DNA of 64,000 nucleotides. Source: a virus. The stretch lies in IMG/VR virus record IMGVR_UViG_3300037245_001320, positions 1 to 64,000 of that record, one strand, 5' to 3'. Shown in pieces: positions 42,366 through 58,385 of this stretch (the first letter of the stretch is position 1; the number at the start of each line of letters is the position of its first letter). Below the pieces are notes generated by a model, which worked only from the letters and a program-made list of their open reading frames with translations, was not told the origin of the DNA and ran no database searches. A program made the position numbers and the translations under genes.

Positions 42366-44204
42366 ATGCAAATGCCAAGAGAAATAGAGGAGAGATTAAT
42401 AGAAGCAAAAGTAAAGTATTATGAAGGGACACCAATAATGGATGATGCTCCATTTGATTTACTAGAGGATGAGTTGAGATCTGTGGATCCCGATAATTCT
42501 TATTTTAGTTTAGTAGGATCGAGAGAACAAGGGGCGGATATTGTACATAAATATAGAATGAAGTCTATGGCAAAAGGGAAACAGCCAGAGGACGTAGAGA
42601 AATGGATGAAGAATATAGGAATAAAAGATCCCCAATTTAGTTTAGTCTTGCTTCCGAAAGTGGATGGAGTTTCTGCAACCTTAAGATACATTAAAGGAAA
42701 ATTAGTATATGTTGCCTCAAGAGGAGATGGAACAACGGGTAAGGATATAACCCACATAGCAAAGCATATGAAAGATATACCCCTTCAAATAGATTTCACC
42801 CAAGATGAAATTGAAATTAGAGGAGAATTATATTTAAGTAAATTTGGTAATCATGGTATAACAGGCCCATTAAGAAATAACTGTACAGGATTAATAAACA
42901 GGCAAACAGATACAAGCCAAACACATCATTTAAGATTTGTGGCTTATCAAGTTGTACTAGGTGGATTTAAGACTGTTAAGGAATACTTAACAACTCTATT
43001 AGATAATGGGTTTAATGTGGCAGACGCTTACTATGTAACAAGTATAATAGGAATATACAATACTTATTTAGATACATTAAGAGATAAGTGGGAGTATGAA
43101 ACCGACGGTTTAGTAGCGGTTGTTAATGATTTAGGCTCTTACAGAAGCATAAATGCTTTGTATAAAGATAATGACCATCACTGGTTCACGAATTTCGCTT
43201 TGAAACCTCCATCAGTAGGAGGAGAGACAACTTTAATTGATATTGAATGGCAGATGTCAAGACAAGGCTTAATGATACCTGTAGCTATTTTTGAAACAAT
43301 AACTATTGGTGGAGTAAACATACAAAGAGCGACTGCAAATAACTACCTTAATGTCTGTGATTTAGATTTGAAGAAAGGAGATATAATCATAATTGAAAGA
43401 GCTAACGATGTAATACCATTCCTAAAGTCAAATAATGGAGGAGGAGAAGGAAATCTTATACCAACAGTTTGTCCTCATTGTGGATCTCATTTAGAAGAGG
43501 TTGGAGTACATTTAGCTTGCTTAAATCATGAGTGTGAGGAACAAGTTATTCAGAGAATTATCTATTATGTTAGAGAGGCTGATATTGATAATGTAGCTGA
43601 AGGGATGTTAAGAGCAATCTACACAACAGGCTTACTAAAAACACCTGCTGACTTATATAGAATTACTAGAAACGATCTATTATATGTAGATGGACTAGGA
43701 AGTACAAAGATAACAACCTTTATTGAAGGAATTAAGAAAGATCGGGTAATAACACCTGTAGAACTTCTTGCTCGTTTAAACATTCCATTAGTTCGGGTAA
43801 AAGGATTGACTAAGTTAGGCATTGATACAATAGACACATTCCTAAGTTATGATGATAAAGGAACAGCAATTGGGAAAAATGTAGTTGAGTGGAAAGAGAA
43901 AGATTACAATATTGATCTCCTAAATGATTTAATAGCAACAGTTGAGATCATAGTAGAAGAAAAAGATGATAAAGTTGGATTAGAGTCTAAAGGCAAAGTC
44001 TGCGCTACAGGAAGTGCTCCAATGGGTAGAAAAGAACTACAGAAGATCATTGCTGAGAAAGGATACGAGTGGCATTCATCTGTGACAAAGGATCTTAACA
44101 TATTGTTAGTTGATGATGTTAATGGATCATCAAGTAAGATAGTTAAAGCAAGAAAGAATGGAACAACTATTATGTTGTATGAGGAGTTTTTAAATGATAT
44201 GTAA
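42366..44204 (+). CDS. ligA: NAD+-dependent DNA ligase
   Basis: PKVDG adenylation motif, SRGDG..G.DIT, EIRGE, TDGLV, ERANDVIP, Zn finger, HhH, C-terminal BRCT. Confidence 0.95.
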   Translation: MQMPREIEERLIEAKVKYYEGTPIMDDAPFDLLEDELRSVDPDNSYFSLVGSREQGADIVHKYRMKSMAKGKQPEDVEKWMKNIGIKDPQFSLVLLPKVDGVSATLRYIKGKLVYVASRGDGTTGKDITHIAKHMKDIPLQIDFTQDEIEIRGELYLSKFGNHGITGPLRNNCTGLINRQTDTSQTHHLRFVAYQVVLGGFKTVKEYLTTLLDNGFNVADAYYVTSIIGIYNTYLDTLRDKWEYETDGLVAVVNDLGSYRSINALYKDNDHHWFTNFALKPPSVGGETTLIDIEWQMSRQGLMIPVAIFETITIGGVNIQRATANNYLNVCDLDLKKGDIIIIERANDVIPFLKSNNGGGEGNLIPTVCPHCGSHLEEVGVHLACLNHECEEQVIQRIIYYVREADIDNVAEGMLRAIYTTGLLKTPADLYRITRNDLLYVDGLGSTKITTFIEGIKKDRVITPVELLARLNIPLVRVKGLTKLGIDTIDTFLSYDDKGTAIGKNVVEWKEKDYNIDLLNDLIATVEIIVEEKDDKVGLESKGKVCATGSAPMGRKELQKIIAEKGYEWHSSVTKDLNILLVDDVNGSSSKIVKARKNGTTIMLYEEFLNDM

Positions 44205-48296: not shown

Positions 48297-49709
48297 ATGG
48301 GAATGGATATTAGTTGTATAGGTGGAATAGGGTTTGAAATTAGTGAATTGTTGGCAATGTATGATGATCACAAGCTAACTAAAGATTACTATAATGAAGA
48401 GGATGAGGACTTAGACAAGTATGAATTAATAGATGAGTTTTTTAGTGATAATGAGTATATAGATCTCCAATGTTTACACTCTTATGATGACACAGAATAT
48501 TATGTATTTGCAGAAGACCCAATAAAGGGCGTGCAAGCTTTTATTGATGAGTTAGTTAAATTAGGTTTTGAAGATTTAAACATAGATGACTTAGATTTTT
48601 ATAGTGAGGCTCAGGTTTGGTAGAGAAGGAGTATAAATGATTAAGAAAATAGTAATAGCACAGAGAGAAAGAACAGTAGTAGAGTTTGAAAAAGACATAT
48701 TTATAAGTACGTTTAACAAACTAGCAGGGCTAAAAGTATTAGTTACACTATCAGATAAAACAGAGGACTTTAAAGGAGACAATGGGAAACTAGACTTAGA
48801 CAAAGATTATGACATGAAAGACCAAACTATTAAGTCTATTGATCCAGAGATTATACTAGAGTTTAACGATCCTAAAAGCATTAGAAATATGATAGAGATA
48901 TTAAAAGATGCAGAAGAATTATTGAAATACAAATTACCTAAAACAAGGGATAGGGGTTAGAAGGAGAATAAATGAATAAGTTTTTAAGATTAATAGGAGC
49001 AACAAGAGTTGAGAAAGAGTGTATAGAGTTTAAATGGGGGTATATAGCAAAAGGATTAAGCTTCCAATTAAAGCTACATAGAGGAGGATATTTCGATTCG
49101 AGGTATGCTGTCTCAATAGGGCTTATATTTGGTTATATTCACATATATCTGCCGTTTAAAACAAAGTTAGGGGAAGGATGCACACTGCCTCAATATGGTA
49201 TAGCAATTCATAATAATACTTTCTGGATATATCTAGGAGGTAAGTTTGATGAGTCATGGGGACAAGTTACTCAAGAGAAATGGATTACTTGGAATCTGCC
49301 TTGGTTTACATGGGAGTTTGATAATCATTGGATTATGAATAAAGAAGGGAAATATCAAATTCCTCAGAAAGTAGAAACACCAATGAAAGATGGAACTACT
49401 CGCTTAGAACAAGACTATGAGTATAAATTTGCCTTGAAGGAAACTGTACCATATAAGTATACTTTAAGAAGTGGAGAGATCCAAGAAATAACAGCTACCA
49501 TTTTCCAAGAGAAAAGGCAATGGCATAGGAAATGGTTTCCTTTTATTAAAATGGTAAAGGTCGATATAGATGTTGCCTTTAGTGATGAAGTTGGAGAGAG
49601 GGCAGGATCTTGGAAAGGTGGAGTTGTAGGAACAAGCTATAAGATGTTGAAAGGTGAGACACCATTAGAGACTTTGAGAAGAATGGAGTCTGAGAGGGTG
49701 TTTAAATAA
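48297..49709 (+). other. Hypothetical genes 48297, 48637, 48972
   Basis: ORFs with RBS; terminator at about 49733-49772. Confidence 0.6.
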
Positions 49710-50116: not shown

Positions 50117-50752
50117 GTGTGGATTAATAAAGAAGAAATACTAAAGGAAGTGGAAGAGGAAGATTGCTGGAAAGATCTTTCTGCTAAAGAAAAGAAGATG
50201 TTTTTGGCATACTGTGTAAATGGCTTAGATTATGTAAAAGCATATAAAGATGTTTATATGGATACAGAGTCAAGTAGGGTTGTAAAGTTCCCAGGGGACA
50301 AAGCAGCAATAATTGTAGCAAAAGACTCGTTTCAAGAGTGCTTTGAAATTTACGGGGAAGCATTACAAGAAGCAGCATCAACAAAAACTAATGCTCATTT
50401 ATATAATCAATATGTAATTATGGCAACAGCAAACCTCCTGGATTATGTTGACGAGATAGGACAATTTAAGTTTAAAAGTATTCAAGAAGCTAAAGATATC
50501 CTTGGAGAAAAAGCATTAGCCATAGTGGGGTTTCAAGTTAGTGTTCACCCGAAAGACCCAAAAAAGACGATGACTGTTCCAGTATTAGCAGATAAAATGA
50601 AAGCTATGAAAGAACTAGCCAAGTTCTCTAAATTATTTGGAGAAGCAGAGTCAGGTGGAAAAGGTCTTGGTACTATTAGTATTGATCTAGGTAATGCTGT
50701 ATTTAATAAAGAAGAAGAGGATAGAAAGAGAAAGGAGTTAGGAGTTGTCTAG
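50117..50752 (+). CDS. terS: Terminase small subunit
   Basis: N-terminal HTH (LSAKEKKMF..Y..AY), DKMKAMKELAK motif, directly upstream of terL. Confidence 0.8.
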   Translation: MWINKEEILKEVEEEDCWKDLSAKEKKMFLAYCVNGLDYVKAYKDVYMDTESSRVVKFPGDKAAIIVAKDSFQECFEIYGEALQEAASTKTNAHLYNQYVIMATANLLDYVDEIGQFKFKSIQEAKDILGEKALAIVGFQVSVHPKDPKKTMTVPVLADKMKAMKELAKFSKLFGEAESGGKGLGTISIDLGNAVFNKEEEDRKRKELGVV

Positions 50753-50870
50753 AAGAAAGAAACGAGATAAAGCAACTAATACAAAACTTGACTTTAATCT
50801 ATATCCAAAACAGAAGTTGGCTATGGATGGCGGGGCCAACGAGATATTATACGGAGGAGCAGCAGGGGGT
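50745..50870 (+). CDS. terL: Terminase large subunit exon 1 (42 aa)
   Basis: AAGGAG RBS, TTG start; ..LYPKQ..EILYGGAAGG, the first half of Walker A. Confidence 0.88.
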
Positions 50871-51127
50871 AAATAATACTGCTCCCTTTAAATCTCTCTT
50901 TAACGGGGAAACTCTTAACAGGTAAAGCTGAAGACAATCCCGTGGGAAGACACTTGAATGAGTGTAACCTGTAACGACTAGAGCATTGTGCTCGTACATC
51001 ACAAGCGATTGGTGATGGAAATGGGAGACAGAGTAAAATCTGAAGAGATAGTCTGATCTCATAGGAAACTATGAGCAGTTCATTTGAGAACGTGATCAAG
51101 GGTAGCGACTTGGTTAGAACATTATTG
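50871..51127 (+). ncRNA. Group I intron 1 (257 nt, no ORF)
   Basis: 5' exon ends in U with P1 partner GCTCCCT; core elements AACGGGGAAAC, AATCCCGTG, AACGACTA, GAGATAGTCT; terminal G; splicing restores GGAAGGGKS. Confidence 0.9.
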
Positions 51128-51799
51128 GGTAAATCACATTTATTGAGAATATCAGCTATAACATATTGTTTATCTTCCCCAGGTGTCCAAGTATATCTAT
51201 TTAGAAAGCAATTGACAGATTTGATTAAAGGTCATTTAAGTTCTGAGTCAGGGTTTCCTAGTTTATTATCTGGACTAGTAGATGCTAAATTATGTAAGAT
51301 AGATATGTCGAGATACAAAATAACCTTTAAAAATGGTTCAGGGGGGAATAGCTGGGCGGGTGGCTCAACTATCCACCTCAGTCACCTTTCTAAAGGAAAA
51401 AATTCATTAAATAATTATCAAGGTGCGGAGATACATGTGCTAATGTTAGATGAGGCAACTCACTTTTTAGCATCTAGTTACAAGTATTTAAGAACAAGGG
51501 TAAGGCTTGGTGGATGGAATCCTCCAGCAGAAGGTCCTTATAGTGGGGACTACTACCCCCGAATTTTAGCTTGCTCGAATCCTGGCGGCTTAAGTCATTC
51601 ATTTTGGAAGAACGAATTTGTGGATAGATTGGAAGATTATGTACCAGAGTTAATGCCTCCTGAACAAGGTGGTATGAGACGAATGTATATTTCTGCGAAA
51701 ATAACGGATAATGCTATCCTCATGAAAAACGATCCTACATATGTCTCAAGACTACTAGCCAGTGGAGAGAAATCTTATGTGGAAGCTTTATTACATGGT
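51128..51799 (+). CDS. terL: Terminase large subunit exon 2 (ATPase)
   Basis: GKSHLLR..FRK..YQGAEI..Walker B MLDEATHF..ACSNPGG..DN..ALLHG. Confidence 0.92.
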
Positions 51800-52113
51800 A
51801 AATTATTGCCCTTTATAATAGTGATATTATAATTAGCACAACTTTAATTGCTGGAAACTCTTGTTAGGTTTCAGGTACAAAGAGAAACAAATGTTTCTCT
51901 CGTGACAATCCTGAAAATAAAGACAATCAGCAGCGAAGACAGAAGGGAACTTCTGTAACGTTCATCGACTATCCCGTGAGGGAGTAGAGAGGTAGTCCTC
52001 TCGAAACAGGTTGCAACTCAAAAGAGTTGAAGATATAGTCAATTCTTGCAGGAGACTGTAAGCAGTTCATAAGAGAACGTAATTAGATTAACGATCTGGT
52101 TAGAATATAAAAG
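51800..52113 (+). ncRNA. Group I intron 2 (314 nt, no ORF)
   Basis: TAATTGCTGGAAACTC, GACAATCAGCAG, GTTCATCGACTA, AAGATATAGTC; terminal G; splicing restores LHG-NW. Confidence 0.9.
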
Positions 52114-52230
52114 AATTGGAATATTTCCATGGGAGGAATCCTACAAGATGACTTCTCCTTTGATATACACATTTTGGATGATTTTGAAATACCAAAGAAT
52201 TGGGATGTGTACAGATGTTTTGACTGGGGT
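52114..52230 (+). CDS. terL: Terminase large subunit exon 3 (39 aa)
   Basis: NWNISMGG..HILDDFEIPKNWDVYRCFDWG. Confidence 0.88.
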
Positions 52231-52542
52231 AAAAACTTGCTCCCCTTGACAGTAATGTTAAGTGTAAAACAACTTTAATTGCTGGAAACTCTCGCTAGGT
52301 TTCAGGTACTCACAGAACTTTGTTCTGAAGTAAAAATCCTGAAAATAGAGACAATCAGCAGCCAAGACAAGCATAAGCTTGTAAGGTTCAACGACTAGAG
52401 CATAAGCTCGTAGGGAGGTAGTCCTTCCGAAACAGGTTGCCCACAGAAATGTGGTGAAGATATAGTCTATTCTATATGGAGACATATAGCAGTTCAGTAA
52501 TGAGAACGTATTCAGATTAACGCCCTGAGTAGAATATGCAAG
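52231..52542 (+). ncRNA. Group I intron 3 (312 nt, no ORF)
   Basis: P1 partner GCTCC; TAATTGCTGGAAACTC, AATCAGCAG, GTTCAACGACTA, AAGATATAGTCT; splicing restores DWG-AAKPF. Confidence 0.9.
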
Positions 52543-53103
52543 GCAGCAAAACCCTTCGGTTGTATTTGGTTTGCAGAATCAAACGGAGAAGCAGTAGAAT
52601 TAGCAGACAAATCAGTAGTTACTTTTCCTGTAGGAACAGCTATAGCAATGAGAGAATTGTATGGTTGTAAAGAAGGGGAGTATGATGTCGGAGTTAATAT
52701 CACAGATAAGCAAATAGGAGAAAGAATTAAAGAAACAGAAGAGGTTTTCTTAAAAGGTTATAATATTAAAGCCGGTCCTGGGGACGGTAGTTGCTGGGGA
52801 AAAGCGAACAAAGAATTTTCAATTATTGATGATATTAACCATGGTTATTATGGAAGAAGAATATCAGATAATGAAAGACTATTCAAAAGGTTTCTAAAAC
52901 CCAAACATTCAAGAGTCGAGGGGTTTAGTTTAATTAGAACTAGATTAAGAAACTCATTACCATTTGCAGAAGGAAAGATGGAAGAGCAAGGATTATTCTT
53001 TTTAAGGGGATGTAAACATATGATAAGGACAATTCCTACACTTCCTCGAAGCGACTCGAATCCCGACGATTCTTCCCCTCATGCAGAAGACCATTTAGCA
53101 GAT
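52543..53103 (+). CDS. terL: Terminase large subunit exon 4 (nuclease)
   Basis: AAKPFGCIWFA..RELYG..C..IRTIPTLPR..PDD..EDHLAD. Confidence 0.9.
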
Positions 53104-53422
53104 AAACAACTATTGTCTGCCTAGCCTGTGAAGGTTAGTAAACAACTTTGTTAATTGCTGGAAACTCTTGTTAAGTTATAGGTACTCGTTAATTCAGTAA
53201 AAATCCTATAAATAGAGACAATCAGCAGCCAAGCCTGAAAAGGAAAGGTTCAACGATCATCGAAAGGGACAAAATAACTTGTCACTGAGTAGAGTACATC
53301 CAAGTGGATGGAAACGCAAAGCTCTCAGAAATGAGATGAAGATATGATCTAGCCTATATTGAGAAATATAGAAGTTCCTACGAGAACTGCAATAAAAGTA
53401 ACGAATTATTGTGAATACAGCG
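53104..53422 (+). ncRNA. Group I intron 4 (319 nt, no ORF)
   Basis: P1 GCAGAU/GUCUGC; TAATTGCTGGAAACTC, AATCAGCAG, GTTCAACGATCA with compensating AAGATATGATCT; splicing restores DHLAD-VLRY. Confidence 0.9.
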
Positions 53423-53488
53423 GTGTTAAGATATTACCTACTAAAGAAAGTTTCTAAAGTGGGTCAAGCTAGGGTGACATTATTTTGA
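53423..53488 (+). CDS. terL: Terminase large subunit exon 5 (21 aa)
   Basis: VLRYYLLKKVSKVGQARVTLF-stop completes the DHxxDxxRY motif. Confidence 0.85.
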   Translation: MLRYYLLKKVSKVGQARVTLF

Positions 53489-53549: not shown

Positions 53550-53730
53550 ATAGGAAGGTTCGCATCTTCCTTAAGGTACAGTAAAATAGAGTCTCAAAGA
53601 ATCAATAAGAAAAACATATAAAAACCTCTTATTAGATCAGAAGTTAGGAAGAACTTTAAAGGATTTACTCTATTACCTTTGAAGTTCTATGCGAAACCTA
53701 ATGGAAGATCTAATAAGAGGTTTTTCATTT
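53550..53730 (+). ncRNA. Structured leader / candidate small RNA upstream of the HNH gene
   Basis: Perfect 19-bp stem 53620-38/53707-25, inner stems, bulge and loop complementary to upstream 53559-65 and 53585-92. Confidence 0.6.
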
Positions 53731-53748
53731 AAAAAAGGAATAAAAATA

Positions 53749-54762
53749 ATGAAACCAAGAGAAGTATCGCACAGATACAACAAAGCAAATGTTATGGTAA
53801 ACAAAGAACAGAAAGAGAAGATGTGTTCTGTTTGTAACAAAGTGAAAAGCCATAAGGAGTTCAATAAATCTTCTTCAAACAAAACAGATAGGTTAGCTGG
53901 AAGATGTAGAAAATGTGAACTTTCTCTACGGTATATAGTAAAAGACACACCTACTACAAAAGCAAAGAAATATAATAAAGACCACCAAGAAGAAAACTTA
54001 AAAAATAAGGAAAAGATGTGTGTATCATGTAATATAGTAAAGCCCTTAGAAGAGTATAATAAAGATAAAGCACGAAAAGATGGTAAGCAATCAGTGTGTA
54101 GACCCTGTAGGCAAGCATTTTACACTACTAATGACCAAAAGAAAAAAGCGAGGATGTATGATGATACCCCTGAGAGAAAAGCATACGAAAAGGAGCGAGC
54201 ACAGAGACCTGAGAGAAAAGCTTATTGTAAGGCACTCAGTAGCACACCTAGAGCAAGAAAACAACAAAAAGAGCATAGAAGTAGACCAGAAGTAAAAGAA
54301 AGACAAAGAGAGTTAAGTAAAATGCCTCATAGAAGAGCAACCACCAATGCATACAGGCAAAGTATAAGAGACAGACCAGAAGTTAGAGCTATGAATGCTA
54401 TGAGGGGAATTATACATAACACAGTAGCTAAGTTTGGAACTAAGAAAGAAAATAAAACTGTAGAAATAACAGGATACTCAGCTAAAGAGCTTATATCACA
54501 TTTAAACAAAGGGAAATACAAATGGAAAGACTATATGAAAAACACACATAAAAATATACTCTTCCACATCGACCACATCATACCCATATCCTATTTTGTA
54601 AAGAAAGGAAGAGAGTATTCAAAAGAAGAGCTAAATAAACTTATTTCTCGTGTCAATGATTTAAGAAATCTTAGAATATGGCCAGGAAGATTAAATGAAT
54701 CTAAGCATGATAAAATAGACAGGGATTTAATCAGAGAACATGGAATAGAGGATCTTCTTTAA
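53749..54762 (+). CDS. Free-standing HNH endonuclease with two N-terminal Zn-ribbon repeats
   Basis: CSVC..CRKC and CVSC..CRPC; R/K-rich helix; HIDHIIP..NLR..N..K; RBS-supported start at 53749. Confidence 0.85.
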   Translation: MKPREVSHRYNKANVMVNKEQKEKMCSVCNKVKSHKEFNKSSSNKTDRLAGRCRKCELSLRYIVKDTPTTKAKKYNKDHQEENLKNKEKMCVSCNIVKPLEEYNKDKARKDGKQSVCRPCRQAFYTTNDQKKKARMYDDTPERKAYEKERAQRPERKAYCKALSSTPRARKQQKEHRSRPEVKERQRELSKMPHRRATTNAYRQSIRDRPEVRAMNAMRGIIHNTVAKFGTKKENKTVEITGYSAKELISHLNKGKYKWKDYMKNTHKNILFHIDHIIPISYFVKKGREYSKEELNKLISRVNDLRNLRIWPGRLNESKHDKIDRDLIREHGIEDLL

Positions 54763-57212: not shown

Positions 57213-58385
57213 ATGACAGAATTAACAGGAAAATACACAAGCTGTAAAATATTTACAGACTACACAGAGCAATCAGCTATAAGTCAGGTATATGAGTTTT
57301 TAAATCATCCCGCATTTGAAAATAAGAAAACAAGGTTCATGCCGGACATTCACGCAGGCTCAGGAGCAGTAATAGGAACAACAGTAGAATTAGGAGACAA
57401 AGTTATTCCAAACACAATTGGGGTTGACATTGGATGTGGCATGTACTCAGTTAAGCTTTCTACAAAGGAAATTAACTATAAAGCTTTAGATAGAAATATC
57501 AAGCAGAATGTCCCTTCAGGATTTAACATGAATAACAAACAACAGGCAATTCCTAAATTGTTAGAGCGAGATATTGTATCAACCTGCAAAGAAATTGGGA
57601 TTGAAACTCATAGAGCCTTATTTTCTTTGGGCAGTTTAGGTGGAGGCAATCATTTCATCGAAATTGGGAGGGATGAACAAAATTTTCTTTGGTTAACTAT
57701 TCATTCGGGATCCAGAAACTTTGGCTTACAAATAGCTAAGTATCACCAGAAGATAGCAGAGCAAAATTATTCCAACCCTAAACCTGATTTAACAAATGTT
57801 TCTCCAAAGGAAAGAGAAGCTTATATAAGAAAGTTCAAAGAGACAAGAGTTAAAATACCAAAAGGCATGGAGTATTTAACAGGAGCAGATAAAGAAGCTT
57901 ATGAACTTCATATGCGTATTGCTCAAAGATATGCGTCTGAGAGTAGAAAGATTATGGTCAGAAACATCCTAAAGACTTTAGATTGTGCTGTATTAGAAGA
58001 GATTGAATCAATCCACAACTATATAGACTTCGAGCATGGTATCATTAGAAAAGGAGCTATTTCAGCACAGAAAGATGAGTTGGTTATTATCCCTTGGAAT
58101 ATGAGAGATGGTTTAATTATAGGCAGAGGTCTAGGTAATCCAGACTGGAACTTCTCAGCACCTCACGGAGCAGGAAGAACTATGTCCAGATCCCAAGCTA
58201 AGAAAGAAGTTAACTTAGATGAGTTTAAAGCATCAATGGAAGGGATTTATTCTTCATGTGTTTCTGAATCTACACTAGATGAATCTCCTATGGCTTACAA
58301 GGACCACACTGAGGTTGAGAAATATCTAGAAGAATCAGTAGAGATTCTACATAGAGTTAAACCAGAATATAATTTTAAAGCATAA
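57213..58385 (+). CDS. rtcB: RtcB-family RNA ligase
   Basis: MPDIHAG, IGVDIGCG, LGSLGGGNHFIE, HSGSR, HNY..RKGA, SAPHGAGR, DESPMAYK. Confidence 0.95.
   Translation: MTELTGKYTSCKIFTDYTEQSAISQVYEFLNHPAFENKKTRFMPDIHAGSGAVIGTTVELGDKVIPNTIGVDIGCGMYSVKLSTKEINYKALDRNIKQNVPSGFNMNNKQQAIPKLLERDIVSTCKEIGIETHRALFSLGSLGGGNHFIEIGRDEQNFLWLTIHSGSRNFGLQIAKYHQKIAEQNYSNPKPDLTNVSPKEREAYIRKFKETRVKIPKGMEYLTGADKEAYELHMRIAQRYASESRKIMVRNILKTLDCAVLEEIESIHNYIDFEHGIIRKGAISAQKDELVIIPWNMRDGLIIGRGLGNPDWNFSAPHGAGRTMSRSQAKKEVNLDEFKASMEGIYSSCVSESTLDESPMAYKDHTEVEKYLEESVEILHRVKPEYNFKA

Follow-up and report, generated by a model that had tools for sequence, protein, structure and literature searches.

Four group I introns in the terminase large subunit gene of an uncultured phage

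The interrupted terL gene

We examined the gene for the terminase large subunit (terL; protein TerL) in a window of 64,000 nucleotides (nt), positions 1-64,000 of the IMG/VR record IMGVR_UViG_3300037245_001320. The record is a metagenome assembly of an uncultured phage, linear, 154,018 bases long, about 90% complete and 30.7% G+C. Ordinary calling of open reading frames (ORFs) over window positions 50745-53488 on the plus strand returned fragments only, of 43, 253, 49 and 158 amino acids (aa). An initial annotation of this DNA had joined five exons across the region into a continuous TerL of about 513 aa and had warned that automated annotation would call the gene fragmented. Its exon coordinates proved exact and its warning correct: the joined exons total 1542 nt, each exon length is a multiple of three, the phase is 0 throughout, and the product is 513 aa followed by a TGA stop. 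Gene callers would therefore report that this phage lacks an intact copy of terL, which is the most widely used marker in phage classification, and the exon map corrects this.

All exons and introns lie on the plus strand, and the four introns are ORF-less and of an IA-like group I type. Exon 1 (50745..50870, 42 aa) opens with a TTG start codon, covers positions 141-177 of the phrog_979 profile and ends ...YGGAAGG inside the Walker A motif. Intron 1 (50871..51127, 257 nt) separates it from exon 2 (51128..51799, 224 aa), which supplies the GKS of Walker A, Walker B and the remaining ATPase domain. Intron 2 (51800..52113, 314 nt) precedes the short exon 3 (52114..52230, 39 aa, NWNIS...FDWG), which was located by homologue alignment and by a search of the genome with the homologue P0001. 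Beyond intron 3 (52231..52542, 312 nt), exon 4 (52543..53103, 187 aa) carries the nuclease domain up to AEDHLAD and is 84% identical to residues 306-494 of P0001. Intron 4 (53104..53422, 319 nt) is followed by exon 5 (53423..53488, 21 aa and the TGA stop, VLRYYLL...), which aligns with the C-terminus of P0001 and of other homologues.

The junctions are fixed by P0001, an intron-less TerL homologue of 514 aa that is 83% identical to the joined product and 85% identical to exon 2. P0001 is encoded uninterrupted on the Logan contigs L001 and L002, where no match to the intron model was found. In a MAFFT alignment the joined product was colinear from first to last residue with P0001 and 12 more distant TerLs, with no insertion or deletion at the four junctions. 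The initial annotation would have given up its exon model had the spliced product failed to align end to end with intron-less homologues; the alignment with P0001 is gap-free at every junction. At the DNA level, window positions 50870 and 51128 correspond to the adjacent L001 bases 786/787. The boundaries between exons and introns cannot slide, because the flanking bases differ on the two sides.

Profile searches against terminase families, proposed at the outset as a check, support the identification as TerL. The phrog_979 (terminase large subunit) profile covers exons 1 and 2 and runs unbroken across the first junction, exon 1 ending at profile position 177 and exon 2 starting at 178 (E 8e-21 for exon 2), and Pfam Terminase_6N (PF03237) matched exon 2 (E 2.5e-7). 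The product has the ATPase and RNase H-like nuclease domains of a large terminase, colinear with the family. A family profile aligned the motifs GdW, DwG and DHxxDxxrY with their counterparts in the D6E large terminase, whose structure has been solved (5OE8), a weak match (E 1.4e-3), and a sequence search with P0001 against the PDB gave no match. Over exon 2, identity to the closest TerL from a cultured phage does not exceed 48%. A scan of IMG/VR with exon 2 recovered only distant TerLs (43% identity or less); neither a scan of JGI metagenomes with P0001 nor a search for exon-4-sized fragments found further relatives. Near-identical DNA in cultured phages was confined to 35-46 nt of intron core, in Bacillus phage BpSp and a Rhizobium phage.

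Comparison of alleles indicated selection on the exons. Between the window and the relative L123, both of which carry introns, the exon protein is 94% identical, the proportion of synonymous differences (pS) is 0.65 and the ratio of nonsynonymous to synonymous substitution rates (dN/dS) is 0.034. The ratio was 0.076 and 0.108 against the intron-bearing relatives L003 and L004, and below about 0.07, with dS saturated, against intron-less L001. The value of 0.034 between two intron-bearing alleles argues that the gene is functional and hence dependent on splicing. A search of the 154-kb record with P0001 found no second terL. Because this is the sole terL in the record, TerL production, and hence packaging, would plausibly depend on four splicing events.

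Structure and insertion sites of the introns

The Rfam group I model RF00028 matched all four gaps over model positions 1-253 (E 1e-10 to 8e-21). Scores were 53 bits for intron 1, 87.1 for intron 2, 82.7 for intron 3 and 74.9 for intron 4, so that in the scan suggested in the initial annotation no intron fell below the curated gathering threshold of 50 bits. As that annotation had described, every intron is preceded by U, ends in G and is inserted in phase 0. P1 helices with a U.G pair at the splice site were present in each, the shortest being in intron 2, as had been noticed (8, 5, 7 and 8 base pairs (bp) in introns 1-4). The guide and 5' exon sequences pair as GCUCCC/GGGGGU in intron 1, GCC/GGU in intron 2, GCUCC/GGGGU in intron 3 and GUCUGC/GCAGAU in intron 4, and an additional intron in L123 has the guide GUCUCC facing the exon sequence GGAGAU. 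The guides vary between introns in step with their own 5' exons.

Structural conservation was assessed in seven complete introns of this TerL lineage, using a structure derived with RNAalifold to which the P7 pseudoknot was added. Standard pairs filled 94.2% of cells, compared with 38-43% when the partners were slid. Compensatory changes on both sides were seen at 40 of 57 pairs, and none of 500 shuffles reached the observed values. P7 was 100% paired, and intron 4 showed a double compensatory swap in this helix (GAUCA/UGAUC, against GACUA/UAGUC in the others). This covariation supports the core helices P3-P9 and the P3/P7 pseudoknot, where the initial annotation had described P/Q/R/S cores; the same helices, together with the Rfam scores, the U.G splice sites and the terminal G, identify the four elements as group I introns.

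Between P7 (GACUA) and the 3' strand of P3 (GAAAC), all four introns hold two hairpins, P7.1 and P7.2, and P7.2 (helix 8) has compensatory changes in all six of its pairs. Because of these hairpins the introns, as folded here, are assigned to subgroup IA, the usual phage type; the assignment is at the level of IA and not of IA1, IA2 or IA3. The introns of phage Twort are IA2.

The longest ORFs within the introns are 36-39 aa, in keeping with the description of them as protein-less, and none encodes the homing endonuclease that self-sufficient homing would involve. Introns 2 and 3 are 73% identical and intron 4 is 51-54% identical to both, whereas intron 1 is 38-45% identical to the others, a pattern that agrees with the earlier observation of three similar introns and one divergent one. 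An in-frame stop lies at codon 2, 11, 16 and 7 of introns 1-4, respectively, no later than the point where the P3-P4 core begins. This layout resembles the arrangement thought to shield the T4 td ribozyme from ribosomes. No other intron of the family was found in the 154-kb record: an intron profile searched to E 10 recovered these four copies only, and Rfam gave no match outside terL.

The insertion sites are GG|GKS (Walker A), HG|NW, FDWG| and AEDHLAD|. When conservation was measured in 8-residue windows across 112 homologues, these sites fell at the 98th, 79th, 88th and 56th percentiles, and jointly they were more conserved than random quadruples (p=0.013), upholding the claim that the introns interrupt conserved motifs. 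Inteins in five homologous TerLs (P0017, P0050, P0103, P0105 and P0110) occur at GGGK|S, NPGGLS|H and AEDH|L; GGGK|S is two codons away from intron site 1, and AEDH|L three codons away from site 4. Homing elements commonly cluster in conserved motifs (PMC2814812). The introns probably occupy such motifs because these are the usual targets and safe harbours of homing elements. That the introns shield these motifs from homing nucleases, as the initial annotation proposed, is a plausible reading.

Following textbook group I chemistry, we infer that terL would be transcribed as a single pre-mRNA in which each intron folds into a P1-P9.2 ribozyme that includes P7.1 and P7.2. A guanosine bound at P7 would attack after the U of the P1 U.G pair, and the freed 5' exon would then attack at the 3' splice site, just downstream of the intron's final G. 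Repeated for all four introns, this reaction would restore the 1542-nt ORF for a 513-aa TerL with Walker A, Walker B and the nuclease motifs intact. The early in-frame stop in each intron, 2-16 codons from its start, probably prevents ribosomes from entering the ribozyme core.

Related alleles, neighbouring genes and routes of spread

Four relatives from other samples, represented by partial to complete alleles, carry from zero to at least three introns each. L001 has none, and its sites 1 and 2 are empty exactly at the window junctions. L003 carries the 3' half of an intron (site 0) just before a 9-nt mini-exon (GCAGCGGGT; L003:1-431), an intron one codon (3 nt) upstream of site 1 that scores 91.7 bits in Rfam, and the start of an intron at site 4, a partial intron placed by eye; its sites 2 and 3 are empty. 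In L004 an intron tail (site 0) stands before a 12-nt mini-exon (GCAGCGGGTGGT; L004:1-324), the site-1 intron is 70% identical to window intron 1, site 2 is empty, and a further intron, in phase 2, is inserted 5 nt past site 4. L123, whose TerL is 94% identical to that of the window, has introns at sites 1 and 3, the latter 82% identical to window intron 3, and an empty site 2. It also has the extra intron mentioned above (L123:379-675, 297 nt, phase 2), located before Walker B (GAE-I|HVLMLDE) at a site that is empty in the window.

Across the five alleles, window included, there are at least seven intron positions, two of them known only from partial introns at contig edges. In the Walker A region of L003 and L004, two introns lie 9-12 nt apart, the upstream one being a partial 3' end at a contig edge. 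Because occupancy differs among these relatives, introns are evidently gained and lost among closely related phages. Intron 2 is, on its divergence, not a very recent copy of intron 3, because the identity of 73% between them is lower than the 82% between the site-3 orthologues. The two ends of the L004 contig (L004:1-16 and L004:1959-1974) share roughly 16 nt of intron sequence, which suggests that the assembly broke at a repeat common to two introns of the same gene.

Since the introns carry no endonuclease gene, their spread must use other means, and we infer that it would proceed through a nuclease supplied in trans, through plain recombination during co-infection, or through reverse splicing directed by the guide sequence. 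A free-standing nuclease gene follows terL (53689..54762, plus strand, 357 aa). Its product has tandem zinc-ribbon repeats and a C-terminal His-Me/HNH motif, with a match to phrog_1035 'endonuclease VII' (E 5e-15) and a weak match of the HNH region to 7p9k; Pfam provided no name, returning a sub-threshold match to Stc1 only. By analogy with known cases, this protein is a candidate trans-acting homing endonuclease for the terL introns. A different nuclease gene directly follows terL in L001 (L001:2227-3588; CapR, DUF4379 zinc fingers, DUF723 and T5orf172; phrog_681 endonuclease), so the 3' flank of terL looks like a landing pad for free-standing nucleases.

A broader possibility, against which we lean on balance, is that this TerL lineage serves as a playground in which one family of ORF-less IA introns colonises new positions within a single gene. 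Given at least seven positions, Walker A introns 9-12 nt apart and guides tuned to targets ending in (G/A)U, ectopic reverse splicing or a multi-target trans nuclease would fit the pattern rather than classical one-site homing.

Upstream, a 211-aa gene (50117..50752, plus strand) overlaps the start of terL by 8 nt in the position of a small terminase. It also precedes the intron-less terL of L001, and it has only a weak PHROG match of unknown function. Elsewhere in the window, a 245-aa ORF at 48972-49709 gave a full-length match to Pfam Acb3, an inhibitor of the cyclic oligonucleotide-based anti-phage signalling system (CBASS) (E 9e-50). An RtcB RNA ligase is encoded at 57213-58385 (E 5e-61), and a DNA ligase dependent on nicotinamide adenine dinucleotide (NAD), with a BRCT tail, at 42366-44204.

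Alternative explanations and comparison with known systems

We assign a probability of about 0.88 to the reading that four group I introns of the IA type, related to one another, ORF-less and self-splicing, have invaded a single terL and behave as selfish mobile elements. Several points weigh against it. Splicing itself is deduced from sequence evidence. The score of intron 1 lies only just above the Rfam threshold (53 against 50 bits), with the 5' end of this intron misplaced by the model, and the P1 helix of intron 2 is only 5 bp long. The structure scored for covariation came from the very alignment used to score it, which favours it, and the structural checks omit P10 and the 3' splice-site context. 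The count of one terL applies to a record that is about 90% complete, and a second copy may lie in the missing part. Finally, the 357-aa HNH-type gene is linked to the introns by position only.

The marginal score of intron 1, the short P1 of intron 2 and the indirect case for splicing would also suit dead relics in a pseudogene, carried by a defective phage or a fragment of one. We rejected this explanation as very improbable: the reading frame stays open through every exon, dN/dS comes to 0.034 for a pair of alleles that both contain introns, compensatory changes preserve the helices, the guides match the exons, and the record has no other terL. Nor do we give real credence to a split gene whose separately translated fragments assemble into TerL, or to assembly artefacts. 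The interruptions cut through Walker A and other motifs, the products of exons 1, 3 and 5 would be just 42, 39 and 21 aa, and neither start codons nor ribosome-binding sites were assigned to the internal exons. A significant group I intron fills each gap, and homologous introns stand at the same sites in independent assemblies from other samples. Both the split gene and the artefact were rejected.

Splicing could instead act as a regulatory gate, in which four ribozymes dependent on guanosine triphosphate (GTP) and Mg would delay TerL synthesis or make it conditional on the energy state of the cell and thereby time packaging. The gene is the sole terL and its expression would rely on splicing; in-frame exon skipping is conceivable, given that every intron is in phase 0 and that GCUCC occurs in the guides of both intron 1 and intron 3. 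Exon skipping has been observed in the TerL of SIOphi, and a gate of this kind was earlier suggested for introns of Bastillevirinae and T4, with a GTP 'on-switch' discussed for those of Bastillevirinae (PMC11878797). Against a gate stands the 83% identical homologue, which is intron-less, along with the other relatives, which have different subsets; the introns are thus dispensable and variable, which suits selfish elements and not a conserved control circuit. The GTP/Mg gate put forward in the initial annotation, already published as speculation and so not new, is unsupported here, and we consider it unlikely.

The initial annotation also held that four introns in one gene is unusual. Published reports give two or three, but the statement is too strong, since an unrelated terL also has four. 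That gene, T4-like, lies on a 47.8-kb IMG/VR contig (L083:6044-9512) and contains four Rfam-significant introns of 81-93 bits; the first is at the Walker A loop, and the flanking exons match TerL PHROGs on both sides. A unique intron number for the terL described here is ruled out by this example. More than 111 IMG/VR contigs contain the 16-nt core common to introns 2-4, and most of these contigs carry related introns (nhmmer), often several in a row. A DNA polymerase gene (L121:1898-4157) has three Rfam matches and one further nhmmer match to the same intron family. Around a major-capsid exon (L108:900-3711) there are four Rfam matches, some or all of which may lie in the capsid gene, and one interval contains an HNH-like ORF.

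The system has several published counterparts. In Bastillevirinae Bacillus phages, terL and polymerase genes are interrupted by up to two or three introns, whose splicing has been demonstrated both in vitro and in vivo (PMC11878797). As in the TerL of SIOphi, one of these phages, group I introns are present in terL, and core genes of DNA metabolism and packaging are hit. The Bastillevirinae introns have a mean length of about 800 nt, and many contain HNH or GIY-YIG genes (PMC11878797), whereas the four described here are 257-319 nt and ORF-less; the TerL here belongs to phrog_979, a family other than that of Bastillevirinae TerL. Two introns have been reported in the terL of Moonbeam (PMC4299906). 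Jug jumbo gut phages have about 18 small ORF-less group I introns per genome, similar in kind to those described here, and a terL in two to three pieces; their splice junctions were confirmed by metatranscriptomes, and they have many stand-alone HNH genes (PMC12880540). Jug introns are spread over many genes, whereas all introns detected in this record are in one.

In phage Twort, orf142 is interrupted by three group I introns that are related to one another (Landthaler and Shub 1999, cited in PMC11878797). It shares with the present terL the presence of several related small introns in one late gene and the possibility of exon skipping; orf142 is a tail tube gene with three introns, whereas the gene here is terL, with four. 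In MarsHill-like phages, terL is riddled with introns and its mature form could not be reconstructed. As there, the introns fragment the present gene so far that annotation fails, but here a close intron-less homologue fixes every junction. This cleanly resolved four-intron terL, with its intron-less and differently occupied alleles, forms a comparative set for the movement of ORF-less introns. The set could show whether neighbouring free-standing nucleases drive that movement between sites and between phages.

Collaborative homing offers a parallel for such a role. In cyanophage S-PM2, an ORF-less psbA intron is paired with F-CphI, a free-standing nuclease with an EndoVII motif (PMC6083498), and T4 mobE is another case (PMC2790892). 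Here too, ORF-less introns in a conserved gene adjoin a free-standing His-Me finger nuclease gene; the likeness is one of arrangement, known here from gene order and motif. Measured against these systems, the four-intron terL is an unremarkable instance of what selfish introns are known to do in phages and not a new kind of system.

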